From: Rhodothermales bacterium | GTDB taxonomy: Bacteria > Bacteroidota > Rhodothermia > Rhodothermales > Bin80 | Direction: 5' to 3' | NCBI GenBank assembly: GCA_965207385.1 | Contig: CBDBLZ010000021.1 | Location: 641,205 to 705,204, forward strand | Length of the DNA stretch: 64,000 nt | Part shown: piece by piece, positions 8,069 through 43,119 of the stretch | Layout: each line of letters starts with the position of its first letter | How positions within the stretch are numbered: the stretch's first letter is position 1 | The notes under the pieces: generated by a model | Databases searched by the model: none | The model's input: only the letters and a program-made list of their open reading frames with translations | What the model was told of the DNA's origin: nothing | Translations under genes and position numbers: made by a program

Positions 8069-11000
8069 ATGACCGTCAGATGCGACGCCCCGGGGCATGC
8101 TGCCACCCCGGCTTTCGGGCAGGCAAATGGGAGGACCGGCTACGCCAAGGTGAGGTCGCTCCTATTTCAGACGTCAGCGGCTTCAATGCTGGCTTGTGCC
8201 CTTGTGGCATGCAGGCCGGCGCCGGACACCGGCCCCAGGAAGGTCGAAGTGTTGTTCCTTGGTCATGAGAGCACGCACCATGACGCGCAGACCTACGCGT
8301 CTGCCGTTGCTGCGTCCTTTGCTCGGGAGGGCATCAATATTTCGTATTCCAACGATCCGAGCGTACTGGAGCCGGCCACACTTGACCTGTATGATGTTCT
8401 GCTTCTGTATGCCAACCACGATTCCATTACCGCTTCACAGGAGAGGGCACTGCTGGACTTTGTGGCCTCCGGAAATGGATTTGTGCCGGTGCACAGCGCC
8501 TCGTACTGCTTCAGGAATTCGGATGCATTTGTGCGGCTTGTCGGTGCCCAGTTCCAGGAGCACGGCGTTGGCAGGTTTACGGCCCCGATCCTCCAGGCGG
8601 ACCACCCTGCCATGCAAGGGCTCAAGGAATTCGAAACGTGGGACGAAACCTACGTGCACACGAGGCATGCACCAGACCGAGCCGTGCTCATGGAGCGCGT
8701 GGACGGCCAACACCGCGAGCCCTGGACATGGACGCGCACGCACGGCAAGGGGCGGGTGTTCTATACCGCCTATGGCCATGACGAACGCACATGGAACCAT
8801 CCGGATTTCCTGAATCTCCTCAAGGCGGGTCTGCTGTGGGCCGCGGGGGATAGAGTGCGTGCGCGATGGGAGGCGCTCGATCTTCCGCCGCTGGTTTACT
8901 CACCGCACGACAGCATTCCCAACTACGAGGAGCGGGATCCTCCTCCCAGGTTTCAGCATCCCCTGTCGCCGGAGGCTTCCCGGGCTCACATGCAGATTCC
9001 GCCCGGATTTGAATTGACACTATTTGCCTCCGAGCCGCTCATCAGAAACCCTATTGCGATGGCCTGGGACGAGCGGGGAAGGCTTTTCGTGATAGAAACT
9101 CGGGACTATCCTCACAACCTGCGCTCGGAAGGGGGCGATGCGATAAAGATCCTGCACGACACGGATGCGGATGGCAGGGCAGACTCCGTCACCGTGTTTG
9201 CTGACGGGCTCAGCATTGCCACAGGTCTCGCGTTCGCACACGATGGCCTCATAGTGTCCCAGGCGCCCGACATGCTCTTCCTGCAGGATACGGACGGAGA
9301 CGACAGGGCTGACAGGCGCGAGGTGTTGTTCTCGGGATTCGGGACAGGGGACACGCACGCCGGTCCGTCGAATCTCAAGGCTGGCTTTGATAACTGGACC
9401 TGGGGCACGGTGGGATACAGTGATTTCGAGGGAGTGGTGGGCGGTGACACCGTTCGAATGGTTCAGGGTGTATTTCGATTCAGGCCCGGCCAGTTGGAAC
9501 AGGTTTCCACGTATACGAACAATACTTGGGGACTTGGTTTCTCGGAGACGTTCGACGTTTTCGGATCCACCGCCAACAATGAGCACAGCGTGTTCGTCGC
9601 GATACCGGATCGATACTATGCCGGTGTCCCGGGACTGCTGGGCGATGGCAAGATCAAGATCGATGGCCACTATGCCATGCGGCCCAATACGCCCAACATT
9701 CGTCAGGTCGACGTATGGGGCGGATTTACCTCCGCTGCGGGGCACAACCTGTATACGGCGCGCGATTTCCCTGACGAATACTGGAATCGCATCGCCCTTG
9801 TCAACGAGCCAACAGGTCACCTTCTGCACCGGGCAATCATCGAGAGCGCAGGATCGGGCTACCGTGAGCGAGATGCCTGGAATCTCCTGGCAAGTGCCGA
9901 TGAATGGGTGTCGCCCGTACATGCAGAAGTGGGGCCGGACGGCGCCGTGTGGATTCTGGACTGGTACAACTTTATCGTGCAGCACAATCCCACGCCCGAG
10001 GGATTTCGCACGGGAAGGGGAGCTGCCCACGTCAATATTCTGCGGGATTACCAGCACGGACGCATTTACCGGCTCGCGTACAGGAATGCAAGGCGCCGAC
10101 GCATTCCAGAGCTGGACATTGAGCGGCCGTCTACCCTGCTAAGGGCACTTCAACATGACAACATGTTCTGGCGCATGACGGCCCAGAGGCTTCTGGTGGA
10201 GCGCGGCGGCCTTGATGTAGTGCCTGGTCTGCTGGAAATCGCGAGCGATGCGGGACTGGATGCAATAGGCCTGAATGGAGGCGCCGCGCACGCGCTTTGG
10301 ACCCTCCAGGGACTGGATGCCGTGCGTGGAGAAGCGCTGCGCATTGTGGAGTCAGCTCTTCGGCACGCGGCGCCAGGCGTCAGAAAGGCGGCGCTGGCCG
10401 TGCTTCCACGGACGGATTCCAGTCTCTCGGCCATTCGGCGCGCCGGCGTGCTGGAGGACAAGAATCTTAATGTTCGTCTGGCGGCGTTTCTGGCGGCTTC
10501 CGAAATGCCCGCCGACCGTGAGACGGGAGCCGTGCTCTACGGGCAGAGCACGCTGCCTGAAGTCAGGACGGATGTCTGGCTTCCGGAGGCGCTGTACATT
10601 GCGGCAAGCCGCCATTGGGAAGGGTTCGTGGACGCGTACGCGCAGGACCTGGGGGCGCTCGCATTCACACGGATGGCAGCTCGCCTTGCCTCCGGTTACA
10701 CGGAGACCCCGACAGACTGGTCAGCGCCCGATCTGGAAACATCGGAGTGGGGGACCATGGCCCTTCCGATGCCATGGGTAAGGACAAATGCACTGACGTC
10801 ATTCGATGGAGCCGTGTGGTTTCGCATTGAGGTCCACCTGCCGGATGCGCCCGCAGGTGCGACGCTCGGCCTGGGCGCGATATATGACAGCGACGTGACC
10901 TTTGTGAACGGCGAGCAGATCGGGGAAACCCTGAACGGCTACGATGCAGCGCGGGTCTACGGCATCCCGCCGGGTCTGTTGCAGGCCGGCCGCAACGTGG

Positions 11001-11641
11001 TTGCTGTCCGCGTGGACGATCCCCGCGGTCGTGGAGGGTTTTGGGGTAGTGCGTATGACCTGTTCCTGCGCACGGGCGGCAGAGCGCATTCGCTTGCCGC
11101 CGAGTGGCACTTCAAAGTCGAGGAGGAATATGTCGGCGGCAAGAAGAGCGAGCTGGCTGCGCATACGCCGATTGCGGAGCACTTTGTCCGGCACCACCTG
11201 GACCGGCTCGATATCGCAGCAGAACGTGTTGGTCCGTCTGCCAACAACGAAACGATACATGAACTGACTCTTTCGGTTATTCCGGGCGCACTGCAGTATG
11301 ACCGCACCTTGCTTGAGATTCCCGCCGGAAGCCTTGCAAGGCTGACGCTTACCAATCCAGGGGATATGCCCCACAACGCCGTGTTTACGGCCCCCGGCAC
11401 CGCGGAAGCTGTCGGACTGAGGTCAGAAAGGGAGGCGGCCGTGGGAGTTTTCGTTCCTGATACGTCTGCCGTGCTGTTTGCCACTGGCATGGCAGACCCG
11501 GGGTCCGAGATTTCGGTAACGTTTCGATCGCCGTCCGCGCCCGGTGACTATCCGTTTCTCTGCACGTATCCGGGCCACTGGAGAGTGATGCAGGGAGTAC
11601 TGCGCGTGACGCGGAATGCGACGGGCCGCGAGGCTTCGTAG
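8069..11641 (+). CDS. large exported multidomain protein: ThuA-like + beta-propeller (membrane-bound dehydrogenase-type) + HEAT-like repeats + jelly-roll + C-terminal cupredoxin
   Basis: 1190 aa. It has a lipobox-like N-terminus (SMLACALVAC). The ThuA-like region reads VLFLGHESTHH..LLLYANHD..FVPVHSASYCF. The middle region is of the propeller/dehydrogenase type (WDERGRLFVIETRDYP, WILDWYNFIVQHNP). The C-terminus reads GDMPHNAVF....GDYPFLCTYPGHWRVMQG, an azurin/plastocyanin-type H..C..H..M copper ligand pattern. Confidence 0.75.
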   Translation: MTVRCDAPGHAATPAFGQANGRTGYAKVRSLLFQTSAASMLACALVACRPAPDTGPRKVEVLFLGHESTHHDAQTYASAVAASFAREGINISYSNDPSVLEPATLDLYDVLLLYANHDSITASQERALLDFVASGNGFVPVHSASYCFRNSDAFVRLVGAQFQEHGVGRFTAPILQADHPAMQGLKEFETWDETYVHTRHAPDRAVLMERVDGQHREPWTWTRTHGKGRVFYTAYGHDERTWNHPDFLNLLKAGLLWAAGDRVRARWEALDLPPLVYSPHDSIPNYEERDPPPRFQHPLSPEASRAHMQIPPGFELTLFASEPLIRNPIAMAWDERGRLFVIETRDYPHNLRSEGGDAIKILHDTDADGRADSVTVFADGLSIATGLAFAHDGLIVSQAPDMLFLQDTDGDDRADRREVLFSGFGTGDTHAGPSNLKAGFDNWTWGTVGYSDFEGVVGGDTVRMVQGVFRFRPGQLEQVSTYTNNTWGLGFSETFDVFGSTANNEHSVFVAIPDRYYAGVPGLLGDGKIKIDGHYAMRPNTPNIRQVDVWGGFTSAAGHNLYTARDFPDEYWNRIALVNEPTGHLLHRAIIESAGSGYRERDAWNLLASADEWVSPVHAEVGPDGAVWILDWYNFIVQHNPTPEGFRTGRGAAHVNILRDYQHGRIYRLAYRNARRRRIPELDIERPSTLLRALQHDNMFWRMTAQRLLVERGGLDVVPGLLEIASDAGLDAIGLNGGAAHALWTLQGLDAVRGEALRIVESALRHAAPGVRKAALAVLPRTDSSLSAIRRAGVLEDKNLNVRLAAFLAASEMPADRETGAVLYGQSTLPEVRTDVWLPEALYIAASRHWEGFVDAYAQDLGALAFTRMAARLASGYTETPTDWSAPDLETSEWGTMALPMPWVRTNALTSFDGAVWFRIEVHLPDAPAGATLGLGAIYDSDVTFVNGEQIGETLNGYDAARVYGIPPGLLQAGRNVVAVRVDDPRGRGGFWGSAYDLFLRTGGRAHSLAAEWHFKVEEEYVGGKKSELAAHTPIAEHFVRHHLDRLDIAAERVGPSANNETIHELTLSVIPGALQYDRTLLEIPAGSLARLTLTNPGDMPHNAVFTAPGTAEAVGLRSEREAAVGVFVPDTSAVLFATGMADPGSEISVTFRSPSAPGDYPFLCTYPGHWRVMQGVLRVTRNATGREAS

Positions 11642-12010
11642 CTCCGGGCGCTTGCTTTGATAGCGGCGTTTTGTGTCTATCCTCGGACATGACGTAGCCT
11701 CGATTATCGAGCCACGGCCACCATCAGGGCAATAGCTGTCACTATCAAGCCTACGCGTCAATTCCATCCGCTGCGTCGCCGATTCTTGGTCCGGGAACTT
11801 ATCCAGTAATCCCAATCAATTCACTGCCTGCACTCTCTGCCACATGAAATATGCTATCTGCGAGGGAAATATCAATAGACTTGCCACATAATCTCTACAG
11901 TGTTGTCACAAATCCTGTTCCCGTCGTCTTCAGTTGTACATCTCCAACGACTTCCCTATATTGAAAGCACAACATTTCTTCACCGATATTCGTTAACCAG
12001 CTAGATACAA

Positions 12011-12298
12011 GTGACCATGAAGATCATAGCTATGAAGACCGTAGACAGGACGGTATTCTCGGCATTACTATTCGCAGGGCTGGCCATCCTGGCATTTGCG
12101 GGTGGTGGGCTTTTTAATGCAGCGTTTCTCTCACCCGCTGATACTCAAGCGGGTGACGATACTTGTGACCACGACGTTTGCAAAGAGATCACATACGCAG
12201 ATGACTCAGTGGAGTGGGTCTGCGGAGACGATGGGACATTTACTTGGGAAGATTGCAATGCCCAACACAATAAGGAATGCGACATGGATGACTGTTGA
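12011..12298 (+). CDS. exported acidic Cys-rich mini-protein (cassette 1)
   Basis: 95 aa with GTG at 12011 and ATG at 12017. The leader is hydrophobic (FSALLFAGLAILAFAGGG). The tail is GDDTCDHDVCKEITYADDSVEWVCGDDGTFTWEDCNAQHNKECDMDDC, with 6 Cys and 16 D/E among the last 48 residues, and it ends on Cys. It lies in an AT-rich island preceded by about 370 bp of non-coding sequence. Confidence 0.6.
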   Translation: MTMKIIAMKTVDRTVFSALLFAGLAILAFAGGGLFNAAFLSPADTQAGDDTCDHDVCKEITYADDSVEWVCGDDGTFTWEDCNAQHNKECDMDDC

Positions 12299-13052
12299 CA
12301 CTGGACCGGGATTCCTAGTATGCGGTTTAAGATGGCGCTCTGGCTCTGAAGATGAACTTCGTCTTGACCGCGAGAAGAAGGTCGCGCTCGGTGGATTCCA
12401 GGTCGACGATTAACGTTGAGGCTCCCCGATGGGGCATAGCAGTAGCCATTCGCTGCCCGACTCCGCCGGAGCTCAATGGATTGGATGTGTCCATGGTGAG
12501 AAGGGGTTTGATGATGAACAAATTAGGCTGGACTACTTGACCAGTTCCGCTGCTAGAACCCCGCTGCGGCTACACTTCTAATGTACAACCGTATCTCACT
12601 TTTTGTTGGCACGGAGGGCAGGACATACCAGCCCGCCATTGTAGTCAATGGACCAGAGGTCACGGTTCAAGCGCGAATTCGTAATTCGATTGTGCAAGAG
12701 ATTTCCCGTCTGTGCTTCGATGTGTCGTCGCGGGCGGTGCTACTAAAACGAAATGGTCGAGCGCCGGTAGTGCAGCCTCACCCGCGAAAAGGTCCGCTAA
12801 TGCGAGTACGTGCCGTTGCCCGAGGCCCCGAAGTGCCTTCACTCGCCCCCATCGACGCCACAAATAGCTCAAGAATTGCGGTCCGGCCACCGTTTATTGT
12901 GAGCTGGACGGAATCCCTTTGGCCAAATCCGAAGTCACCACTACAACGCATTACTCACAGGGTTCGCCATGTCCCACGCTTACCGAGGTAAGACTGCCCC
13001 GAATCCGCCGGCGCACTGTCCCGCCGAATGGGTACATCCTAATAGTTAAACC

Positions 13053-14198
13053 ATGATTTCCTGGAAGCTACGCATCATAATTCTTTGTGCCGTTATCGGG
13101 CTACTTTTGGTTGTTGCCCTTCTCGCGAATATCGTAGGTGATAGAATCGGCGGGGCGACTAATCCTGTCGGAGAAGTACGCCATCCTACTCCCGAGAACA
13201 TACCCTCGGTAACCGATGCACGCCGCGTAGCAGGCCATGGGCCCGCTACCGGCGATGGTAGTCATGCCTTCTTGGATTCAACGTCCTACAGCGAGCTAAC
13301 TATTGGTGTAGCAGAGGGATCGGCGCACGAAATGTTCGGCCTGATTGAAGATGTCGTCATCGACTATAGTGGCAACATTTTTATTTTGGATTCTCAGTAT
13401 AACCAGGTGCGAGTATTCGACTATGATGGCTCCTTCATTAGCACGATCGGTGCTCCTGGACAAGGACCGGGTGAATTCCTTTCTGCACGAAATGTGTTGA
13501 TTTCCTCTCTAGGGAACATTGTTGCGGTTATGAGTGGCCCGAAGATCGAGATGTTTGAACGACAGGGTCCGACTTCTTTCGCATACCGCTCTACTTTCTC
13601 CAGAGAAGGTTACCTTGGGCCCGGCGGATGCGCAATGAACAACCATTTGTATCTATTGGCCGTAGTTCCCAATAGGGACGGTATGATACATAAACATACG
13701 CTCGACGGCGAAATAGCCCGTTCTTTTGGAGCGCTATACAATTCTGACAACGAACAAGTTGTCAGACATATGTCGACGAAAGCTCGACTAGCGTGTAGTG
13801 AGAAGTATAGTATTGTAAGCTTCCTTATGGACTTTTCGCCGGTTCTTACCGGCTATCGCGAAGACGGTACGGTGGCTTGGCATGTGTCATTCGAGGGTTT
13901 TCTGGCATCGGCCGTTTGGGAAAGAAGAACTCCGGAAGGCCGGAATCGTATCTCGTATAGCGCAAATGAGGTCGGGGAAGCGTTCTACACGCATATGTTT
14001 TTTCATCATGATCACTTTTACGTCGGTTACAGAGTACGAGGTGATGGCACAGGACAGCACTTCAGAATTCACGCAGAAAGTGGGTATACGGAGTACTTGG
14101 GAACTCTCGACGCAGCAGTCTATGGTATCGACGGAGAGCGTGTAATAGTGGCCAGGAATTTTCCGTTCCCGAGAGTCAAGGTGTTCACTAGGCGATAG
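13053..14198 (+). CDS. 6-bladed beta-propeller protein (NHL/DUF5128-like), N-terminal signal anchor (cassette 1)
   Basis: 381 aa. TM segment LRIIILCAVIGLLLVVALLANIV. Blade motif DYSGNIFILDSQYNQVRVFDYDGSFISTIGAPGQGPGEF. It is a paralogue of 21150..22166. Confidence 0.75.
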   Translation: MISWKLRIIILCAVIGLLLVVALLANIVGDRIGGATNPVGEVRHPTPENIPSVTDARRVAGHGPATGDGSHAFLDSTSYSELTIGVAEGSAHEMFGLIEDVVIDYSGNIFILDSQYNQVRVFDYDGSFISTIGAPGQGPGEFLSARNVLISSLGNIVAVMSGPKIEMFERQGPTSFAYRSTFSREGYLGPGGCAMNNHLYLLAVVPNRDGMIHKHTLDGEIARSFGALYNSDNEQVVRHMSTKARLACSEKYSIVSFLMDFSPVLTGYREDGTVAWHVSFEGFLASAVWERRTPEGRNRISYSANEVGEAFYTHMFFHHDHFYVGYRVRGDGTGQHFRIHAESGYTEYLGTLDAAVYGIDGERVIVARNFPFPRVKVFTRR

Positions 14199-14206
14199 AC
14201 GCTCAC

Positions 14207-14812
14207 GTGAAGGTACTTGAAGTCAAGTGGATACGGTGGGGAGGCGCTGGTATAGTGGCGTCGTGTTTTTGGCTCGGGGCCGTGGTGGGAATTCCGATTT
14301 CGTCAGTGGAAATTCATTGGAGAGTAAAAGACTCTCAGCCTGGGGAAAGGTATGTGCCCTCACATTCTGTGGTTAGCGGGCGGGAAATGGTGATGGTTTA
14401 TCTTGGCGCGTATTCTTGTGCGTTCGCAAATGACGAGGCGTTGCCTCGGATTGTTGAGAGGATTAAGCTTGGTTTGCAGGACAAGGCTGTGAACGAGGGT
14501 ATGTCATTTTCAGCTATTGGAGTGGCGGTGGATTGGCGCGTTGGTGAGGGAGTTGAACACTTGGAAAAATTTGGACAGTTTGATGAGATCTTGGCTGGGC
14601 GCAAATGGCACGGAGTCGGCTCTCTGCAGTTCTTCAAGGAACGGTTAGCGGGAGTAGCGGCGACGCCGCAAGTCTTGGTGTTTAAGCGGGATATAGAGGC
14701 GGAAGAGGGTGCATTTCGAGTGTCGAACGAACGCGTGCTTGTCCGAAAGATGGGCGTGTTAGGCATAGGCAATTGGCTTGAACGCGGGTTGCCTTTGCCT
14801 GAGAACTTATAG
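14207..14812 (+). CDS. membrane-anchored thioredoxin-fold protein, monothiol CAFA variant (cassette 1)
   Basis: 201 aa with a GTG start 8 nt after the propeller stop. TM segment AGIVASCFWLGAVVGIPI. VMVYLGAYSCAFANDEALPRIVERI aligns with the CSFC site of 22169..22675. A later TPQVLVF looks like a cis-Pro loop. Confidence 0.55.
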   Translation: MKVLEVKWIRWGGAGIVASCFWLGAVVGIPISSVEIHWRVKDSQPGERYVPSHSVVSGREMVMVYLGAYSCAFANDEALPRIVERIKLGLQDKAVNEGMSFSAIGVAVDWRVGEGVEHLEKFGQFDEILAGRKWHGVGSLQFFKERLAGVAATPQVLVFKRDIEAEEGAFRVSNERVLVRKMGVLGIGNWLERGLPLPENL

Positions 14813-15091
14813 AGCAGGTTGAGCTGGAATGGCGGTGGCACTGCGCGCATAGCGCCAGCAAATCAAACGAGCAGAAACAGCCCAAATCTAGAATATGTGT
14901 AGGTAGACTTGGACATCTATCTCCGCATGTACGCGCTTGAAGGCATGGACTTTTGCGGCATGCCAATATTCAGCGAGGGGTTTAAGGGATCTCTTGGGGC
15001 GCTCAGACCCGACCGCCTCCATCCGTGACTTTGAACGGATCGCCGGCGGCAGGCAGACAGTTCGCGCGGCTAAGCCGCCCATAAAAGCGTG

Positions 15092-16531
15092 CTACGCGAT
15101 AATTCCCTTCACCACAAAAGCCTCCTCTACCCCTGTTAGCTTTTGGTCCAGTCCCCGAAACTTGACAGTGAGTCGCTCATGGTCGATGCCTAGCTGATGC
15201 AGAATTGTGGCGTTCAGGTCGCGGATGTGTACGGGATCCTCGAGTATGTTATAGGCGAAGTCATCGGTTAGTCCATACTCGATCCCCGGCTTTATGCCGC
15301 CGCCCGCAAGCCACAGCGTGAAGCAGCGACCATGGTGATCGCGGCCGGCGCTTGGATGTCCCAGCTCACCCTGGCTGTATATGGTACGACCGAATTCCCC
15401 TCCCCAGATGACGAGCGTCTCCTCCAGCAAACCGCGTCGCTTCAAGTCCTTGACCAGGGCAGCCGATGCCTGATCCACATCCAGGCACTGCGAAGGCAAT
15501 TGCTGCCTGAGCGCGATGTGCTGGTCCCATCCCCGATGGAAGAGTTGCACGAATCGCACGCCCCTTTCCGTCATTCGCCGCGCGAGCAGGCAATTTGCGC
15601 TGTAACTGCCAGGCTTGCGGGAGTCCGGGCCATAGAGTTCGAATACTTCCTCCGGCTCATCAGACAAATCCATCAGATCCGGAACCGCAGTCTGCATGCG
15701 GAAGGCCATTTCATAGGCTTCGACCCGGGCAAGGGTCTCGGGATCACCCACCGCTTCGGCTTCGCGGCGGTTGAGAACGGCCAGATCGTCCAGCATGCGC
15801 CTTCTTTGCGCACGAGTCACGCCCGGTGGATCGGAGAGGTAAAGCACCGGGTTCACCCCCGGTCGCAGTAGCACGCCCTGATGGCTACTGGGCAGGTACC
15901 CGCTGCCCCAAAGCCGCGCATAAATGGGCTGTCCGGGATTTTTCCCGGATCCTTGGGACAGCAGAACCATGTAGGCGGGGAGGTTCTCGTTTTCGCTGCC
16001 AAGTCCATAGCTCAGCCAGGCACCTAGGCTGGCATGTCCGATTTGCTGTGATCCGGTGTTAATGAACGTGATGGCAGGATCATGATTGATGGCCTCCGTA
16101 TGCATCGACTTGATGATGCAAATGTCATTTGCAATAGACTGAATATGTGGCAGCAGGTCGCTTATCCATGTGCCGTGGTGGCCGCAGCGGCGCATGGGCC
16201 ACATGGGAGATACTACCGGGAAGGAATTCTGCCGTGAGGTCATGCCGGTAAGCCGTTGGCCACCGCGTATGGAGTCCGGCAACTCAGTGGAATGCAAATC
16301 TGTCTGGGCGGGCTTGTAGTCGAAGAGGTCGACGTGCGAAGGACCACCTGACTGGAAGAGGTAGATTACCCGCTTTGCTTTTGGCAGAAAGTGAAGCGGG
16401 CTGCGCCCGCCGGTCCCCGTCAGATCCGGGAACAACAGGCTGGCCAGGCCGAGCCGCCCGATTCCCCTTGCTGTCTTGCCAAGGAAAGTACGGCGTGTGA
16501 TAGCACGTTCGAAATCGAGGACCGGATGCAT
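15092..16531 (-). CDS. DUF1501 family protein (sulfatase-like fold), Tat signal
   Basis: 479 aa. N-terminus [25 protein letters not shown] is Tat-like. Its size and sequence are typical of the DUF1501 partner of DUF1553 proteins. It starts 1-2 nt after the upstream gene's stop. Confidence 0.75.
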
Positions 16532-16532
16532 G

Positions 16533-19625
<3,093 letters not shown>

Positions 19626-20583
19626 GTAGCTTGGCCGCTTTGACGTGATCGATTCCAGCTCCAACTCCAGCATACAAGGTAGAGGATAAGCCAATTACGA
19701 ACTCGCCCAAGTCGAATGCCTGAGATGAACCCAACCGCTACTTCCACTATCGTAGACAACTTGGAATCGATTGGCACGATTAAGCAGACTTGGCCTTAGG
19801 ACCGCAGTGGATGTCACGGCGTGGCCTTGGCGAAGAGGTCCCTTGAACAGCCGTAAGAAGATTGGCAGTAGCAAATTGGCCGGCACGATAGCTCACTTGA
19901 TAGTTCGCGGCCATAGGCGCGGGACGGGGGCCCACCAATCTTATTGGCAGATGCGGGACCAACAAACCACCGTGGCAACCGCGGACCCAAGGCGCGCTGT
20001 GGGCCCTTAGGATCACTGTGTCCGCGGCGATCGCCAGACTGACACGGGATTCACGGAGTGGCACACGGAAAAAGGACCGGTGGAACTAGGGTTGGGACGG
20101 ACGAGCGGATAGACCAGATTAAACTCGGTAGAAGGTTAGGATTCGATCCGACTGGAAGCCTTGTCGGTGCTGCAGCACAGTGCAACCGGCATCCCGCAAG
20201 GGGCTGGCGGGCCAATAGGGTAGTAGATGGCACCGTACTACCGAAGCCATTGGGTAATGCCTACCGAGGAAAGCAGCCTTGAGCTGAGCGCTGTGTGGAC
20301 GGACGTAAATCGATGTCCGGGACGTAAGCGGTACTGTAATCGCTATACTTTACCAGATCTAAAATGTCCATTTATGGTTCTCCGAGTAGTCCAATAATGG
20401 CGTGCCCTCTCTAAGGGCCCGTCCCGGCTGCTGCCAACCATATCGACGTGGCCTCGAACGATTCCCGTCAGCCTACGTCTTCATCCATTCTTAACTCGCA
20501 AGCACTCGAACATTACTTGTCGCCCATTATGACATTCTCTCTACTTCGTCCGCTACTTACTCGTACATGTCAACTAAATCTCT

Positions 20584-20862
20584 ATGACCATGCATGCCCA
20601 TAGCCGTTCAATCAGTCGGACCTTTCTCGCTCTAGCGTCGGCCGCTACTTTCATTGTGCTGGCCCTTTCATTTCCCGACGGCCAAGTAGCGCAAGCGAGA
20701 GACCCAGTGTGCAATGGAACTTGCGGCGCGCATTGCGATCTAGGCCCGGATTACTACTGCCACACGCTCTATTGTTGCGATAGGAGCCAACTTCCGTGCT
20801 CCGAAGGAGATGTGGAACCCTTCACCTGCTATGGCGACACCGACATTATGGTCACGCCCTAA
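20584..20862 (+). CDS. exported Cys-rich mini-protein (cassette 2, copy A)
   Basis: 92 aa. Leader RTFLALASAATFIVLALSF..VAQA. Tail RDPVCNGTCGAHCDLGPDYYCHTLYCCDRSQLPCSEGDVEPFTCYGDTDIMVTP has 8 Cys. Like 12011, it begins M-T-M (ATGACCATG versus GTGACCATG). Confidence 0.6.
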   Translation: MTMHAHSRSISRTFLALASAATFIVLALSFPDGQVAQARDPVCNGTCGAHCDLGPDYYCHTLYCCDRSQLPCSEGDVEPFTCYGDTDIMVTP

Positions 20863-20883
20863 CACTAAACAAACGGTGCCTTC

Positions 20884-21153
20884 ATGATCAAGAAAAGGAT
20901 TTCTCGCTTACTCGTGTCGGTCCTCCTGACAGGGCTATTCTTAAGTCTAACGTTGGCTTCCTCTACCGCAGGCAAAGTCCCAGTCCCTGACTGCGGAGCT
21001 GATGCGATGCGCCGTTGTATCGCAGCAGGATGCGGGGGCGATGAGGTGGTGCTATGCGGTTCCACGACGTGTCTGGAATGTGTCGATTTTGCGGGTCTTT
21101 TTAATTTGGGTTGCTGGCTCAAGGACTTCTACTGTTACGGGGACTATCCATGA
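20884..21153 (+). CDS. exported Cys-rich mini-protein (cassette 2, copy B)
   Basis: 89 aa. Signal peptide MIKKRISRLLVSVLLTGLFLSLTLASS. Tail VPVPDCGADAMRRCIAAGCGGDEVVLCGSTTCLECVDFAGLFNLGCWLKDFYCYGDYP has 8 Cys. Its stop overlaps the next gene's ATG (ATGA at 21150-21153). Confidence 0.65.
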   Translation: MIKKRISRLLVSVLLTGLFLSLTLASSTAGKVPVPDCGADAMRRCIAAGCGGDEVVLCGSTTCLECVDFAGLFNLGCWLKDFYCYGDYP

Positions 21154-22166
21154 TCCGAACTCTGTCCTTCTTCTTGTGCCTGTCTTTGGTGTCGTGCCGC
21201 GCCACGCCAGCGGGACAAGATGGTACACGGCTCTTTGCCAAATTGTTGCTGTCGCCGGTCACGGAACAAGAAGCACAAGAACGGGAGTGGCGCGATGTTT
21301 CTCTCCGCCAGGTATTCAGCTTGCCAAGGTCACCGGATGTGTTGCTGTTTAACCCGGGAGAGATTACAGTTGATGCCGCAGGAAATATTTTCGTGACAGA
21401 TCACGCTGTGTTCAAGGTCTTGGCTTTTGATCAGGACGGCCACTATATCAGATCGTATGGAGAGGGAGAAGGAGAAGGGCCTGGTGAGTTGAGATCCGTA
21501 ATGAATACTGGATTAATCGGCGACACCACGCTTTTTGCCGTAGACTACGCTTCTAGGAAGATCTCATACTTCTCCAAAGATTCAGGAGCCTTTATTGAAT
21601 CTCGTACGATCACCGGAGTGCCCATTAGGCACACTGTTAGTACCGAAGGTGTCGCGTATACGCTGGTCGGTCGTACCGACTCGCTATTCCGATCCGAGAG
21701 TGGATCAGATGTGATCCAGTTCGGGGAATTGGTTGAGAATCAAATCTCACATGGCTTTAACCTGGCCTTAGGGTATATCGATACATACCGGGACAAGATG
21801 TTGCTCAGCCTAACCTACTTCCCAGTAATTGCGCAATACGAATCAGATGGGTCCCTCGTGTATGCGCGCACAACTCCGGACTATTTCGCGCAGTTTGACG
21901 AGCCGGAATGGGTGCGCACCGACTTTGCGGGAGCCATCGGTTTTCGTATTCAGGGCCAGGCGATTAACACTAGAAGCAGCGTGTACAACGATCAGCTTTT
22001 TGTGCATTCACGGAAAGCAGGTGCTATTGACGTGTTCGATGCCGAGACGGGTGACTACGGTTACTCCTTCCGGCTTCCACGAGATAGGAGTGCAGCGTAT
22101 GTTATGAACAATCGTCTGTATCAAGCGGAAGATACAACCGTAGTTGTATACTCATTTAGCTTGTAA
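21150..22166 (+). CDS. 6-bladed beta-propeller lipoprotein (NHL/DUF5128-like) (cassette 2)
   Basis: ORF 21111..22166. The likely start is MIRTLSFFLCLSLVSC (lipobox) at 21150. Blade motif DAAGNIFVTDHAVFKVLAFDQDGHYIRSYGEGEGEGPGEL. It is a paralogue of 13053..14198. Confidence 0.75.
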   Translation: MIRTLSFFLCLSLVSCRATPAGQDGTRLFAKLLLSPVTEQEAQEREWRDVSLRQVFSLPRSPDVLLFNPGEITVDAAGNIFVTDHAVFKVLAFDQDGHYIRSYGEGEGEGPGELRSVMNTGLIGDTTLFAVDYASRKISYFSKDSGAFIESRTITGVPIRHTVSTEGVAYTLVGRTDSLFRSESGSDVIQFGELVENQISHGFNLALGYIDTYRDKMLLSLTYFPVIAQYESDGSLVYARTTPDYFAQFDEPEWVRTDFAGAIGFRIQGQAINTRSSVYNDQLFVHSRKAGAIDVFDAETGDYGYSFRLPRDRSAAYVMNNRLYQAEDTTVVVYSFSL

Positions 22167-22168
22167 CG

Positions 22169-22675
22169 GTGAGTAGACCCGCATCTCGGACGCCGTTGAT
22201 AATGGAATGGGTCAGTTACGCTGTCCTATTGGTTACCATTGTCATGTTCGCTTGGACGGTTTTCGGACCGCCAGAACCCACACCGTATGTCGACGTTGGC
22301 GATAGCATTCAGGCCGTGAAAGGTATGGAAGGGGAGTGGCCGGGCGAAAGCCTGTTGTTGGTTTTGTCCCCGACGTGTTCTTTCTGCACGGGAAGCCTGC
22401 CGTTCTATAAGCAGTTGGTGGATCAGAGAGAGAGGGAGGTGAACATAATTGTTGCTATAGATACCAGTGCGTCTGCAACTTTGCAGCGGCGTCTACTCGG
22501 GCAAGCAGGGGTAGCTCCGGATACGACGATCGTAATTCCTACGGTAGACGATAGGGTTGTGTATGTCCCAACAATTATTCACGTAGATCAAGGAGCGATG
22601 GCAAAGAGAGTGTGGGTTGGCCAGTTGAATGGCGAACAGGAAGAAGAAGTACTGTCGATTGTACGAATGAAGTAG
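22169..22675 (+). CDS. membrane-anchored thioredoxin-like protein with CxxC (CSFC) (cassette 2)
   Basis: 168 aa with a GTG start 2 nt after the propeller stop. TM segment WVSYAVLLVTIVMFAWTVF. LLLVLSPTCSFCTGSLPFYKQL is a TlpA/ResA-type active-site context, and VPTIIHVD looks like a cis-Pro loop. Confidence 0.65.
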   Translation: MSRPASRTPLIMEWVSYAVLLVTIVMFAWTVFGPPEPTPYVDVGDSIQAVKGMEGEWPGESLLLVLSPTCSFCTGSLPFYKQLVDQREREVNIIVAIDTSASATLQRRLLGQAGVAPDTTIVIPTVDDRVVYVPTIIHVDQGAMAKRVWVGQLNGEQEEEVLSIVRMK

Positions 22676-23002
22676 CGCAATTGCGGAGCAATGGTCGCAA
22701 TACGTAAGGAAAACGGGCCGAGTACAGGGTGGAAATTCGCGCGATATAGCGGTTGAAGCCAGCCATACCATTTGCGGGGCCGGCCGGTCACTCGCGCGGG
22801 GGCACGGGTGGAGGATCAGCACCGGCGTAAATGGATAGGGCGACCGGCGACGTTTTGGACTTACGCCGGCGAGAGACTAGTAGTACGGGGACTCGAGGTC
22901 TGCTCTAAAGTGGATCGGCCGTTTGTTCGGTCAGTTCACAAGCGAGATGGTATGGGGGTACGCCATTGGGCGCATATTCTCTCTTCTGACCTGCTAGCCG
23001 AA

Positions 23003-39776: not shown

Positions 39777-41153
39777 GTGAAGGATCTTTTTGCCGAAGCT
39801 GAAAAGCGCCACCGGTTAAGGGCTGCACCTCTCGCCGACCGCATGCGGCCGCGCGAACTGGGCGAGTTCGAGGGTCAGGAGCGTATTCTGGGCCGCGGGA
39901 AGCTGCTGCGCCGAGCCATCGAGGCCGACAGGATCCGCTCTCTAATACTGTTCGGGCCTCCCGGTACGGGCAAGACCACGCTTGCGCGCGTAATAGCCCG
40001 CACCACGCGTGCGCACTTTGCTACGCTCAATGCGGTAATGTCCGGAGTAAAGGATATTCGTGTTGCGACCGAGCAGGCCGATGAACGGCTGCGCATGCAC
40101 GGCAGGCGCACCATTATGTTTGTAGACGAGGTGCACCGCTTCAACAAGGCCCAACAGGATGCCCTACTGCCAAGTGTCGAAAGCGGGACCATCGTCTTTA
40201 TCGGCGCTACGACGGAGAATCCGTACTTCGAGGTCATAAAGGCGCTGGTGAGCCGATCGCGCGTATTTGAATTCCGGCCCCTGGAAGAAGTCCACCTGAA
40301 GAAGCTGGCGATACGCGCCCTGTCAGATGCACGGGGGTATGCGGACCGGCAGGTCGCACTGGAAGACGAAGCGCTCGAGCACCTGGTCCACACATCGGGA
40401 GGCGACGCTCGCTCGCTGCTCAACGCCTTGGAACTTGCCGTTGAAACGACGCCCCCCGGTCCGGAAGGTACCGTGCACGTTACGCTGGACGTTGCGGAAG
40501 ACAGCATTCAGCAGCGTGCTGTTCTGTATGACCGGGACGGGGATGCCCACTACGATACCATCAGCGCGTTTATCAAGAGTATGAGAGGCAGCGATCCCGA
40601 TGCCGCGCTGTACTGGATGGCACGAATGCTGTATGCAGGGGAAGATCCGCGCTATATCCTGCGCCGGATGCTGGTTTTTGCCGCCGAAGACGTAGGTCTG
40701 GCGGATCCCCGGTGCCTGCAGGTGGCTGCGAGTGCGGCGCAGGCATTCGAATACGTGGGTATGCCCGAGGGCCAGTACCTGCTTGCTGAATGCTGCCTAT
40801 ACCTGGCCACCGCCCCCAAGAGCAATAGTACCAAGGCGTACTTTGGCGCCTTGCGGCACGTAAGGAGCGAGGATGGTGGTGCTGTACCAGATGCTCTCAA
40901 GGATGCTTCGAGGGATAGCTCGGAACTTGGCCATGGAAAGGGATACCGCTACCCCCACGACCATGCCTACCACTACGTGCCTGCTCAGTATCTTCCGTCC
41001 GGCATGCTAGGTACATACTTTTACGAACCGGGCGCAATGGGTTTTGAGAAGTCCATTCGGGACCGGCTGGACTGGTGGCGTAAGCAAGATTTGGAAGCGG
41101 GCCTTGACAAGCGAAGCCGGCACTACTCGGCTGAAAAGCAGCGTGACCAATAG
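39777..41153 (+). CDS. rarA: replication-associated recombination protein A (AAA+ ATPase RarA/MgsA)
   Basis: 458 aa. Walker A is GPPGTGKTTLARVIA and Walker B is IMFVDEVHRFNK. Also FIGATTENPYFE and a C-terminal MgsA region (YDTISAFIKSMRGSDPDAALYWMARML). Confidence 0.85.
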   Translation: MKDLFAEAEKRHRLRAAPLADRMRPRELGEFEGQERILGRGKLLRRAIEADRIRSLILFGPPGTGKTTLARVIARTTRAHFATLNAVMSGVKDIRVATEQADERLRMHGRRTIMFVDEVHRFNKAQQDALLPSVESGTIVFIGATTENPYFEVIKALVSRSRVFEFRPLEEVHLKKLAIRALSDARGYADRQVALEDEALEHLVHTSGGDARSLLNALELAVETTPPGPEGTVHVTLDVAEDSIQQRAVLYDRDGDAHYDTISAFIKSMRGSDPDAALYWMARMLYAGEDPRYILRRMLVFAAEDVGLADPRCLQVAASAAQAFEYVGMPEGQYLLAECCLYLATAPKSNSTKAYFGALRHVRSEDGGAVPDALKDASRDSSELGHGKGYRYPHDHAYHYVPAQYLPSGMLGTYFYEPGAMGFEKSIRDRLDWWRKQDLEAGLDKRSRHYSAEKQRDQ

Positions 41154-41156
41154 CAC

Positions 41157-41783
41157 ATGCAGCGCTGGTTGAAATTTGCTGATCGCGTGGACCGCCTCAA
41201 CGGGCGCATCGGTCGGTTTGTCTCGTGGCTGGCGTTGCTGATGGTGCTGGTTGGGGCCTACAATGCCGTGGTTCGTTACCTGGCCGGGTTCTCAAGCATC
41301 GACGGCGATTCGGCCACGGGATTCGGCCGCATTCTCAAAGCTGTTGGCGAGCTGGCCCTTCCGCTGAATTCCAACATGTTTATTGAACTCCAATGGTATC
41401 TGTTCAGCATCATTTTTCTGCTGGGTGCCGCATACGGTCTCCGGTGCGGGGCGCACGTGCGTGTCGATGTCCTATACCAGCGCTTGTCGCCCCGCAACCG
41501 TGCGCGGATCGACGTAGTGGGGGCTGCCTTCTTCCTGCTTCCTTTCTGCGTCCTTATGGCTTTTGCCTCCTGGCCGTTTGTGGTGGAGTCCTGGGCTGTG
41601 CTTGAAGTCTCTCCTGATCCAGGCGGGCTGCCCCGCTATCCGCTGCTGACCGTCATTCCGGTGGCGTTCCTTCTGTTGGCGTTGCAGGGACTGGCACAGC
41701 TGGTCCGGAGCGTCTCCGCGCTGCGCTCGACGGTTTCCGGTAGCACCTCCACTCAGCCGTTCGAGCAACGTCATGGGATATGA
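41157..41783 (+). CDS. TRAP transporter small permease subunit (DctQ-like)
   Basis: 208 aa with four hydrophobic segments. It sits immediately upstream of the large permease and overlaps it by 11 nt. Confidence 0.7.
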   Translation: MQRWLKFADRVDRLNGRIGRFVSWLALLMVLVGAYNAVVRYLAGFSSIDGDSATGFGRILKAVGELALPLNSNMFIELQWYLFSIIFLLGAAYGLRCGAHVRVDVLYQRLSPRNRARIDVVGAAFFLLPFCVLMAFASWPFVVESWAVLEVSPDPGGLPRYPLLTVIPVAFLLLALQGLAQLVRSVSALRSTVSGSTSTQPFEQRHGI

Positions 41784-43119
41784 GTGGCTTGCGCCGCTGA
41801 TGTTTGCGGCGGCACTCTTGTTCATTTTTTCCGGTTACCCGGTAGCGTTTGCCCTGGGCGGAGTATCGCTGGTGTTTGCCGTGATCGGCGTTCTGGTCGG
41901 CTACTTCGACTGGCACCTGATGCTCGCTCTTCCGGACCGTTTGTTCGGCATCATGTCGAATTATGTTCTTCTGGCGGTGCCGTTCTTCATTTTCATGGGC
42001 ACGATGCTGGAAAAGAGCCGGTTGGCCGAGGACCTGCTGAAGACGATCGGGCTGTTGTTCGGTCCCGTTCGCGGAGGATTGGCTCTCGCCGTGGTATTCG
42101 TGGGTGCGCTTCTGGCCGCGGCAACGGGCGTAGTGGGTGCCTCGGTCGTTGCCATGGGCATGATCTCACTGCCCATAATGATCCGGTATGGCTACTCCAA
42201 AGAACTTGCCACGGGCGTAATCACCGCCAGCGGAACCCTGGGGCAGATCATTCCGCCGAGCGTCGTCCTGGTGGTACTGGCCGACCAGCTCGGCATCTCG
42301 GTGGGGGACCTCTTTATCGGAGCCCTGGTGCCGGGTGTTATCCTTGCAGGACTCTATGCCGTTTTTGCCGGTGCTGTGGCCCTCGTGCGGCCTGGCGCAG
42401 CGCCGGCCCTTCCCAGGGATGATCGGCAAGTCCCTGCGGCTGAGCTCGTCCGCCGCATCTTGCTGGTCATGTTCCCGCCACTGCTACTGATCGTGATAGT
42501 GCTTGGCAGCATCTTTGCGGGAATTGCCACGCCAACGGAGTCCGGGGCACTTGGTGCGGTTGGAGCCATTCTGCTAGCCGCACTCAACAGGCGATTGAGC
42601 CGCAAGGCCCTTCGGGAAACCATGGAGGAAACGGCCAAGCTGACCACCATGGTGTTATTGCTGCTGGTGGGTTCAACGGCCTTTGCTCTGGTATTTCGGG
42701 GGCTCGACGGAGGATTCTGGATCGAGGACCTGTTGACGAGTTTGCCGGGCGGCGTCATAGGATTCCTGATAATCGCGAATCTGGCCATCTTCGTGCTCGG
42801 ATTCTTCATTGACTTTTTTGAGATTGCTTTCATAGTGATTCCGCTGCTTGTAACGCCGGCGGCGACGCTTCTTGCTCCAATGCTCGGTGTACCGGCGGCG
42901 GTCGCACTTGTCTGGTTTGGCGTAATGGTAGGCATGAACCTCCAGACCTCCTTTCTGACGCCGCCCTTCGGATTTGCGCTTTTCTATCTCAGGGGCATCG
43001 CTCCGCCCGGAATAAGGACTACGGAAATCTACCGGGGCGCCGTGCCGTTTATTGGCATTCAGCTCCTGGGCCTGATACTGATCATAGTGTTCCCGGAGCT
43101 GGTGCTCTGGGCTCTATGA
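41773..43119 (+). CDS. TRAP transporter large permease subunit (DctM-like)
   Basis: 448 aa polytopic membrane protein with a DctM-type sequence (AVPFFIFMGTMLEKS, GTLGQIIPPS). Confidence 0.8.
   Translation: MGYEWLAPLMFAAALLFIFSGYPVAFALGGVSLVFAVIGVLVGYFDWHLMLALPDRLFGIMSNYVLLAVPFFIFMGTMLEKSRLAEDLLKTIGLLFGPVRGGLALAVVFVGALLAAATGVVGASVVAMGMISLPIMIRYGYSKELATGVITASGTLGQIIPPSVVLVVLADQLGISVGDLFIGALVPGVILAGLYAVFAGAVALVRPGAAPALPRDDRQVPAAELVRRILLVMFPPLLLIVIVLGSIFAGIATPTESGALGAVGAILLAALNRRLSRKALRETMEETAKLTTMVLLLLVGSTAFALVFRGLDGGFWIEDLLTSLPGGVIGFLIIANLAIFVLGFFIDFFEIAFIVIPLLVTPAATLLAPMLGVPAAVALVWFGVMVGMNLQTSFLTPPFGFALFYLRGIAPPGIRTTEIYRGAVPFIGIQLLGLILIIVFPELVLWAL

Follow-up and report, generated by a model that had tools for sequence, protein, structure and literature searches.

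The combination of a beta-propeller with a thioredoxin (Trx)-like protein is known from several systems. In NHLRC2 a Trx-like domain is fused to an NHL propeller. It is established that the mau cluster of methylamine dehydrogenase (MADH) encodes a periplasmic beta-propeller, a small exported disulfide-rich subunit and a membrane-anchored Trx-like protein, MauD, with MauE. In the assT-dsbL-dsbI system, and in the case of epsilon-proteobacterial DsbI, a periplasmic beta-propeller is coupled to a dedicated thiol-disulfide oxidoreductase; DsbI of Helicobacter pylori is described as a membrane redox partner with a beta-propeller (PMC4597128). In this work we analysed two gene sets, A and B, located in a 64,000-nucleotide stretch (the window) of contig CBDBLZ010000021.1 (positions 641,205 to 705,204) of a Rhodothermales bacterium (assembly GCA_965207385.1). 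Each set encodes one or two exported Cys-rich mini-proteins (A1; B1a and B1b), a tethered propeller (A2; B2) and an anchored Trx-like protein (A3; B3) (Table 1). Judged from sequence comparisons, this triad is best described as a putative undescribed, conserved and mobile envelope cassette, and we think it somewhat probable (roughly 0.55) that its propeller and Trx-like protein handle the exported disulfide-rich mini-proteins.

The closest analogues of the cassettes are functional, not homologous. Unlike the mau cluster, the gene sets have no MauG and no Trp pair that could form tryptophan tryptophylquinone (TTQ), the mini-proteins are half the size of MauA, and their copy number is variable. 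The MADH heavy and light chain families were unmatched in Pfam and NCBIfam scans of the seven proteins, neither the cassettes nor their neighbours include a di-haem or other maturase gene, and MauE is absent from the window, being present only in a related locus (L076). In the assT-dsbL-dsbI type systems the redox pair serves a propeller enzyme or general folding, whereas here the mature B2 propeller has no Cys, the A-type Trx-like proteins are mostly monothiol, and a Cys-rich protein is added as third component. In the Pfam scan the propellers gave DUF5128 only, with the arylsulfotransferase family unmatched, and the cassettes contain no DsbB-like membrane gene. The coupled propeller and Trx-like genes resemble a split version of NHLRC2-type proteins, a likeness of architecture only, but they are separate genes (8-nt and 2-nt spacers), and the sole apparent fusion, in L017, is truncated and probably a frameshift. 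Monothiol members of the protein disulfide isomerase (PDI) family (ERp44, AGR2, CxxS PDI mutants) also keep the nucleophilic Cys, have the resolving Cys replaced by Ser or Ala, and have a Cys-rich secreted client; they are, however, eukaryotic proteins of the endoplasmic reticulum lumen without sequence relationship to the proteins described here, thus the analogy is one of chemistry only. To the DUF5128/TolB-like propellers of Bacteroidota (Joint Center for Structural Genomics structures such as BF0058 and 4raa) our propellers belong by the score of the hidden Markov model (HMM) and by fold, and paralogues are expanded in that family too, but Trx-like and mini-protein partners are not general in it.

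An earlier reading of the letters and open reading frames (ORFs), referred to below as the sequence-only reading, had noted that the cassette fits no named class of ribosomally synthesized and post-translationally modified peptides or bacteriocins. We came to the same conclusion: the mini-proteins have Sec-type leaders, the neighbouring genes encode ThuA-DUF7133, DUF1501, PSD1 and gamma-glutamyltranspeptidase (GGT), and the ORFs and the Pfam scan of the neighbours revealed no C39 transporter, radical SAM enzyme, lanthipeptide enzyme or cyclodehydratase in or beside the cassettes. We found no description of the mini-protein-propeller-Trx triad in the literature searched, and nothing on DUF5128 or NVEALA. 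The system is best described as building on a known principle, in which a Cys-rich exported protein has its own periplasmic redox partner, with an NHL propeller and the unusual monothiol Trx-like family of the A type as additions.

Association, conservation and mobility of the triad

Among the 30 A3-like loci that had enough flanking DNA to be informative, 27 contained an A2-like DUF5128/NHL propeller gene within one gene of the A3-like gene, nearly always directly upstream. In L016, L093, L095, L098, L113, L119 and L121 the stop codon of the propeller gene and the start codon of the Trx-like gene share 4 nt or 1 nt. Cys-rich mini-proteins with Sec signals flank propeller-Trx pairs in about 25 loci, in one to four copies each, located before the propeller gene or after the Trx-like gene; outside the window the distance between mini-protein and propeller genes is usually less than about 300 nt, or the genes overlap. 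The triad is present in many uncultured bacteria; beyond the window it was found in L005, L001, L016 (two in tandem), L093, L094, L076 and in about 15 metagenome loci. The census thus bears out the association proposed in the sequence-only reading, as the three gene types occur together in divergent lineages, in some of them in rearranged order. In L030 and L094 the order is altered but the components are still together; L094 has a mini-protein, a Trx-like protein, a Cys-rich 359-aa protein, a propeller and an extracytoplasmic function (ECF) sigma factor. The 359-aa protein (L094 1329-2408) has CSTC...CCTY motifs and no Pfam match. In L118, L123 and L125 the Trx-like gene adjoins a mini-protein gene and no propeller is visible.

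The Trx position of the triad is filled by non-orthologous proteins: by members of the A3 family, by the PF13098-type B3, by another anchored single-Cys protein with a CxxG motif in the first (L016a) of the two full tandem triads of L016, and by MauE together with a CQPC redoxin in L076. The latter locus, from Palauibacter, encodes a 15-Cys exported protein, a propeller, MauE (PF07291, E 5.6e-16) and the redoxin. The complete order in L076 2836-8236 is Cys-rich exported protein, propeller, multi-transmembrane protein, 15-Cys protein, propeller, MauE and CQPC redoxin; the 15-Cys protein has a twin-arginine-like leader, and the locus looks like a more elaborate triad with a MauE/MauD-like pair.

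A propeller-seeded scan using one genome per species yielded 79 loci, distributed over Rhodothermales, Gemmatimonadota (Longimicrobiales, Palauibacter), Acidobacteriota and Aminicenantes. In the propeller-seeded loci a local HMM detected 194 propeller ORFs, with tandem arrays of up to nine. Across these 194 ORFs the presence of a Trx-like neighbour was associated with that of a Cys-rich mini-protein (8/2 vs. 4/180, Fisher p = 5e-10). It must be noted that the triad instances are not fully independent; the association extends, however, over propellers of 25-45% identity, altered gene orders and Trx-like partners that are not homologous. Collapsed to lineages, with 60 independent controls assumed, the association had a Fisher p of 2e-4. 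The triad arrangement is far beyond what chance would produce. The idea that all DUF5128-like propellers carry mini-protein or Trx partners was rejected: no dominant family emerged when 150 propeller neighbours were clustered by BLAST and scanned against Pfam.

Both sets are horizontally acquired. A search of 5.8 billion proteins revealed just four homologues of B2. One of them, 74% identical and orthologous, is encoded on a 5.4-Mb Rhodothermales chromosome (L001), where the order mini-protein, mini-protein, propeller, Trx-like protein is kept. In a blastn comparison L001 9436-11514 corresponded to window positions 20576-22663, and the homology began and ended within about 12 nt of the four-gene block. 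In L001 the block has IS66 genes, a relaxase and another transposase at its sides; in the window it lies between the PSD1 and GGT genes. In another lineage (L002-L004) a propeller 52% identical to B2 has lost its partners, and a 54-aa remnant overlaps its stop codon. Because the block is discrete and sits at another site in L001, and because the L002-L004 relatives are decayed, set B behaves as a mobile unit. The relative of A2 in L005 is 86% identical and belongs to the same triad at the same chromosomal site; the spacer between A1 and A2 differs from that of this closest relative by an indel of about 480 nt (window 12463-12642 matches L005 4917-5573 by blastn). Related genomes also have more remote A2 homologues (36-44% identity), paralogues without partners that lie in the IS-rich island described below.

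The sequence-only reading had pointed out that the two sets share gene layout and topology and that their similarity is at the level of motifs, suggesting either an old duplication or two separate acquisitions. The common layout and topology were evident also in our analysis, built however from different families, and in BLASTP comparisons the propellers showed 40% identity over a 30-aa blade motif while no other pair gave anything significant. Of the two origins proposed, separate acquisition and not duplication is the right one, since the mini-proteins and the Trx-like proteins of the two sets belong to different families and since set B is a discrete 2.1-kb block that occurs at another site flanked by insertion sequences (IS).

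The ratios of nonsynonymous to synonymous substitutions (dN/dS) relative to orthologues were 0.18 for A2, 0.23 for A3, 0.19 for B2 and 0.25 for B3. The A1 orthologue in L005 is 85% identical (dN/dS 0.23) and that of B1b in L001 62% identical (0.15), thus six of the seven genes fall in the range 0.15-0.25. B1a has a dN/dS of 0.86, with most of the change in the leader, and its L001 orthologue keeps all eight Cys with identical spacing. The low ratios, together with the conserved Cys and spacing of B1a, indicate that the cassette genes are real and under purifying selection.

Variation was seen in several related loci. L006-L010 (e.g. L009 1-17038) represent the same site as window positions 8069-15000, downstream of the gene for a ThuA-DUF7133-cupredoxin protein, and form a hypervariable island with IS21, IS1595, a Mu-like transposase, AbiEi, Mrr and several partner-less DUF5128 propeller paralogues. 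Two cassettes are disrupted by IS elements. In that of L017 (3894-7605) a transposase lies between a truncated mini-protein and the propeller, whose ORF runs into the Trx-like ORF, probably as the result of a frameshift. In that of L090 (5471-7001) an ISL3 element cuts the propeller to its last 67 aa. L093 carries a second pair (11005-12605), a 5-Cys exported mini-protein followed by a TolB_like/DUF5128 lipoprotein propeller without a Trx-like gene, on the same plasmid-like or integrative and conjugative element-like contig.

Properties of the encoded proteins

All cassette products are predicted to be extracytoplasmic: the mini-proteins have Sec-type leaders, the propellers are tethered, and the positive-inside rule gives an N-in/C-out orientation for the Trx-like proteins. 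A2 is held by an N-terminal signal anchor and B2 by the canonical lipobox LVSC. Both propellers scored above the gathering score of PF17170/DUF5128 (42.8 bits for A2 and 34.8 bits for B2, against 22.9), in alignments that span blades 1-2 only; the Pfam scan suggested in the sequence-only reading thus supported the proposed family. The AlphaFold2 model of A2 (predicted local distance difference test (pLDDT) score 88.9) has about 24 strands, and its best Foldseek matches were the NHL propellers of Thin, Brat and TRIM71/2/3 (E ~1e-10), followed by Bacteroides BF0058, Vgb (virginiamycin B) lyase and PAL. The structure prediction covers A2; the assignment of B2 as a propeller is based on the HMM score. 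The only family match of the propellers other than DUF5128 was a weak one to the ScyF NHL model in the NCBIfam scan. As the proposal of the sequence-only reading demands, the propellers are outside the characterised enzyme families, being DUF5128 by HMM and NHL-type by fold. Two Cys, C193 and C248, are invariant in A2-type propellers; the pair is present also in solo A2-like propellers, which have no Trx-like partner. The A2- and B2-type propellers have no conserved catalytic constellation in common; a joint alignment was too divergent for a pattern scan. Exact look-ups of the window propellers gave no match because public gene calls use other start codons.

Propellers of this family also occur in other arrangements. 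L045, L057, L061, L071 and L074 (Longimicrobiales, Gemmatimonadota, Acidobacteriota) contain arrays of 7-9 DUF5128-like paralogues, some of them interleaved with Cys-free lipoproteins of about 215-230 aa. The lipoproteins of the Longimicrobiales arrays (L045, L052, L054) were considered as Trx-like partners and rejected, as they are Cys-free and not Trx-like. In the Palauibacter-type loci L024, L025, L028, L029, L032 and L033 a radical SAM-SPASM gene adjoins the propellers (e.g. L024 1230-2234), and a gene for an exported 4-Cys protein lies beside the propeller on the opposite strand (L024 3365-3700). The propeller family may here have another partner, one that matures peptides.

The sequence-only reading had assigned a thioredoxin-type motif to both A3 and B3. 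B3 has a CxxC (CSFC); A3, however, is not a CxxC thioredoxin, its motif being CAFA, its family mostly monothiol and its fold coming from a model of moderate confidence. A3 had no match in Pfam or NCBIfam. Its AlphaFold2 model, built from six sequences only, has a mean pLDDT of 59 (75-85 in the core) and a beta-alpha-beta-alpha ... beta-beta-alpha order. Among the Foldseek matches listed almost all were Trx-fold proteins (TlpA, ResA, DsbE, Sco), with a few peroxiredoxins and tryparedoxins, at E ~2e-4 and template modelling (TM) scores of 0.3-0.5. A Trx-like fold is thus likely for A3 on the strength of the predicted structure; a 1-Cys peroxiredoxin-like role was considered as well but is not favoured. 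An A3-family member that does have a CxxC, in L117, matches Thioredoxin_8 with an E of 2.8e-5, below the gathering score.

With clusters defined at 50% identity, the A3-like family amounts to 1,881, 1,651 and 395 of them at E<=1e-3, 1e-10 and 1e-30, respectively, and neither A3 nor ten sampled members matched any Pfam or NCBIfam model. The 96 members with a locatable motif had CxxS in 70 cases, CxxC in 14, CxxA in 11 and CxxT in one. The first (N-terminal, nucleophilic) Cys was kept in every alignment of the family that we made, while the resolving Cys is usually Ser or Ala. To our knowledge, dedicated extracytoplasmic monothiol Trx-fold proteins have barely been studied in bacteria.

B3 is, by profile comparison, a bona fide anchored thioredoxin of the PF13098 type. 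Aligned with 11 proteins carrying a precomputed PF13098 annotation, it gave an hhalign probability of 99.7% (E 1.9e-26, 137 columns), and it shares with them an SPTC.FC..S.PFYKQLVD stretch, a cis-Pro loop and a C-terminal VWVGKL; the CSFC is at residues 70-73, and the VPT of the cis-Pro loop aligns with GTPT of the family. B3 itself is below all Pfam gathering scores (Redoxin 13.7 bits vs. 26.6, E 0.054), and the wider B3 family is not propeller-linked. Since hhalign comparison of the A3 family with B3 was not significant, A3 and B3 are not demonstrably of the same family. Neither the A3 nor the B3 profile found a meaningful match among PDB sequences, and the viral contigs and the plasmid collection contained no relatives of A3-like or B3-like proteins.

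The three mini-proteins of the window have a basic N-terminus, a hydrophobic core of 15-20 residues and an acidic mature part (pI ~4); the signal-peptide calls are based on these sequence features. None of the three matched a Pfam or NCBIfam model, known toxin families included. A1 belongs to a family in which 20 mini-proteins from other loci can be aligned, with the six-Cys framework C-E-x-[DN]-x-C, x7-9, C, x8-9, C, x5-8, C, x4, C. A local HMM of the 20 mini-proteins matches A1 at E 9e-14, A1 itself being among the seed sequences, and also recovers unseeded mini-proteins in L005, L095, L096 and L016; it does not match B1a or B1b. Between B1a and B1b the paralogy is weak, consisting in a common C-terminal C[YF]G[DE] motif. 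There is no conserved Trp pair in the mini-proteins, and B1a has no Trp at all. The exported Cys-rich proteins announced in the sequence-only reading thus do have signal-peptide-like leaders and conserved Cys frameworks, with the dN/dS values given above.

Proposed function and alternative explanations

The hedged proposal of the sequence-only reading, a periplasmic peptide system, is supported by these comparisons; whether the system would fold, isomerise, modify or neutralise the peptides is a matter of inference. In the mechanism that we propose the mini-proteins would be exported unfolded, and the anchored Trx-like protein would handle their three or four disulfides. Monothiol Trx forms do not donate disulfides but can attack them and form mixed disulfides, as exemplified by CxxS PDI, ERp44 and AGR2 in isomerisation or retention. 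Because the A3 family is mostly CxxS/CxxA, mixed-disulfide or isomerase chemistry is favoured over DsbA-like oxidation, i.e. the A-type proteins would act as isomerases or by mixed-disulfide "holding", while B3 with its CSFC could be a true oxidase or reductase. Three observations suggest that the Trx-like protein acts on the mini-proteins: mature B2 has no Cys yet has a CxxC partner, so the client of B3 cannot be the propeller; partner-less A2-like propellers keep their invariant Cys in the absence of a Trx-like gene; and the Trx-like gene and the mini-protein gene stay together where the propeller is missing. Taken together with the monothiol chemistry, this leads us to propose that the propeller, as a platform binding the mini-protein, and the Cys of the Trx-like protein would handle the mini-proteins jointly. 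The two proteins would thus form a split NHLRC2-type or PDI-type foldase consisting of a binding module and a catalytic module, with the folded mini-proteins as product.

Several points weigh against this proposal. About 180 of the 194 DUF5128-like propellers have neither partner and often stand in tandem arrays; it follows that the propeller needs no mini-protein and that the triad is a sub-pattern of DUF5128. In about one-third of the A3-like loci no mini-protein was detected, being possibly missed or truly absent. The Trx fold of A3 derives from a model with a mean pLDDT of 59 and Foldseek E values of ~1e-4, and hhalign of A3 (6 or 136 sequences) against PF13098-type thioredoxins was not significant. 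On its own a monothiol Trx-like protein cannot finish a catalytic cycle, the folding of the mini-proteins might need no more than housekeeping Dsb enzymes, and no outer-membrane route for the mini-proteins is encoded in or beside either cassette.

The lack of an export route bears also on another explanation, in which the mini-proteins are toxins or bacteriocins matured by the Trx-like protein, the tethered propeller confers immunity, and the solo and arrayed propellers are orphan immunity genes. Mobile context, paralogue arrays and decayed cassettes do fit a competition or immunity role: IS66 and a relaxase are found in L001, ParA and Toprim in L093, ISL3 in L090, islands with IS21, IS1595, AbiEi and Mrr in L006-L010, there are large arrays of partner-less propeller paralogues, and the decayed cassettes L002-L004 keep the propeller only. 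The atypical G+C content at third codon positions (GC3) of the cassette genes, the variation of mini-protein copy number from one to four, and the faster divergence of the B mini-proteins (58-62% identity) than of the propeller (74%) point in the same direction. However, in set A the mini-protein evolves no faster than its partners, the tightest coupling is that of propeller and Trx-like genes, not of mini-protein and propeller, neither cassette has an outer-membrane export route, C39 transporter or lysis gene in or beside it, and the proteins matched neither a PADLOC model nor a known toxin family. We regard a toxin-immunity module as unlikely. The same tight propeller-Trx coupling, and the invariant C193 and C248 of the A2-type propellers, speak for an explanation in which the Trx-like protein serves the propeller itself, as DsbL/DsbI serve arylsulfate sulfotransferase, and the mini-proteins are unrelated passengers. 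This seems very improbable in view of the absence of Cys from mature B2 despite its CxxC partner, the Cys pair kept by solo propellers without Trx-like partner, the Trx-like and mini-protein genes adjoining without a propeller in L118, L123 and L125, and the fact that among the 194 propellers mini-protein presence tracks Trx-like presence.

The three-part logic of mauB/mauA/mauD is well established, and one might see in the propeller the large subunit, in the mini-protein the cross-linked small subunit and in the Trx-like protein the MauD-like assembly factor of a MADH-like enzyme. The translational coupling of B1b and B2 and the L076 locus, where a Cys-rich exported protein comes before a propeller and a true MauE and a CxxC redoxin come after it, agree with such an enzyme, and the MauE/MauD-like variant fits a role in small-subunit assembly. 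On the other hand, the propeller is of the six-bladed NHL type whereas the MADH heavy chain is seven-bladed, mini-proteins and propellers matched no Pfam or NCBIfam family except DUF5128 and, weakly, the ScyF NHL model, there is no MauG-like or radical SAM maturase in either cassette, there are one to four mini-proteins per propeller, and the A2- and B2-type propellers share no catalytic constellation. As the mini-proteins have no conserved Trp pair, and B1a no Trp, a TTQ enzyme was rejected, and a MADH-like enzyme in general appears improbable to us. To the idea that the three genes merely hitch-hike on mobile DNA, without a functional link, we give hardly any credence: close relatives (window and L005, window and L001, L016 and L017) do inflate the counts, but the association spans lineages with 25-45% identity, altered gene order (L030, L094) and non-homologous Trx partners, stop and start codons overlap, and the components are under purifying selection.

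If joint handling of the mini-proteins by propeller and Trx-like protein is true, it would give the first functional handle on DUF5128/NHL-type propellers, which are heavily expanded in Gemmatimonadota, Acidobacteriota and Rhodothermales, including metagenome-assembled genomes with sponge-symbiont-like names. It would also define two families for which no curated model exists, the anchored, mostly monothiol Trx-like proteins (~1,650 clusters) and the 6-Cys exported mini-proteins, and mixed-disulfide or isomerase chemistry in the envelope could readily be studied on a natural CxxS enzyme whose client is encoded together with it. If they have biological activity, the mini-proteins would provide small, stable, disulfide-rich peptides from a new source. 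We tentatively entertain a broader possibility, which we would not call probable: that Rhodothermota, Gemmatimonadota and other uncultured bacteria harbour an undescribed, widespread mobile class of Sec-dependent disulfide-rich peptide systems, in which the propeller and the mostly monothiol Trx-like protein would serve as dedicated foldase or tether, the hypervariable 6- and 8-Cys mini-proteins as toxins or signals outside the cell or in the envelope, and the propeller arrays as a binder or immunity repertoire.

Layout and surroundings of the gene sets

All seven ORFs named in the sequence-only reading were found in the ORF list where it had placed them, on the + strand (Table 1), and its finer details were equally accurate: the ATGA overlap of the B1b stop and the B2 start (21150-21153), the spacers of 8 nt before A3 and 2 nt before B3, and the G+C counts of 23/60 (13381-13440), 23/60 (21541-21600) and 40/60 (8101-8160). 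The cassettes are AT-richer than their surroundings, as it had stated, with a GC3 of 0.49-0.59 in cassette genes vs. 0.67-0.71 in the neighbours; the G+C content of the window is 0.59. The two sets bracket, again as described, an opposite-strand pair, DUF1501 and PSCyt1/PSCyt2/PSD1 (DUF1553). To the left of the cassette region lies the ThuA-DUF7133-cupredoxin gene and to the right the GGT gene. Scans of the cassette region for Rfam families, tRNAs, promoters and terminators gave nothing above background, and none of the seven cassette proteins matched any PADLOC model at E<=0.1.

Table 1. Positions of the cassette features in the window
Feature	Position	Strand	Description
A1 mini-protein	12011-12298	+	95 aa, 6 Cys, Sec-type leader, acidic (ORF list)
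A1-A2 spacer without recognisable gene	12299-13052	.	sole ORF 12581-12991 without Pfam match
A2 propeller	13053-14198	+	381 aa, N-terminal signal anchor, DUF5128, NHL-type, six-bladed
A3	14207-14812	+	201 aa, single transmembrane anchor, CAFA, predicted thioredoxin-like fold
B1a mini-protein	20584-20862	+	92 aa, 8 Cys, Sec-type leader, C-terminal CYGD
B1b mini-protein	20884-21153	+	89 aa, 8 Cys, Sec-type leader
B2 propeller	21150-22166	+	338 aa, lipobox LVSC, DUF5128
B3	22169-22675	+	168 aa, single transmembrane anchor, CSFC, PF13098 (Thioredoxin_2) type

Elsewhere in the window, positions 41000-43000 show a strong negative AT skew (-0.33, -0.25), which coincides with an ORF (41773-43119) for an ordinary-looking, highly hydrophobic polytopic membrane protein of 448 aa. 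On the 3' side of B3 a stretch of 42 nt (22910-22951) is 90% identical to L009 2367-2408, an intergenic segment beside a propeller paralogue in another genome, and could represent a short repeat or a site of recombination.

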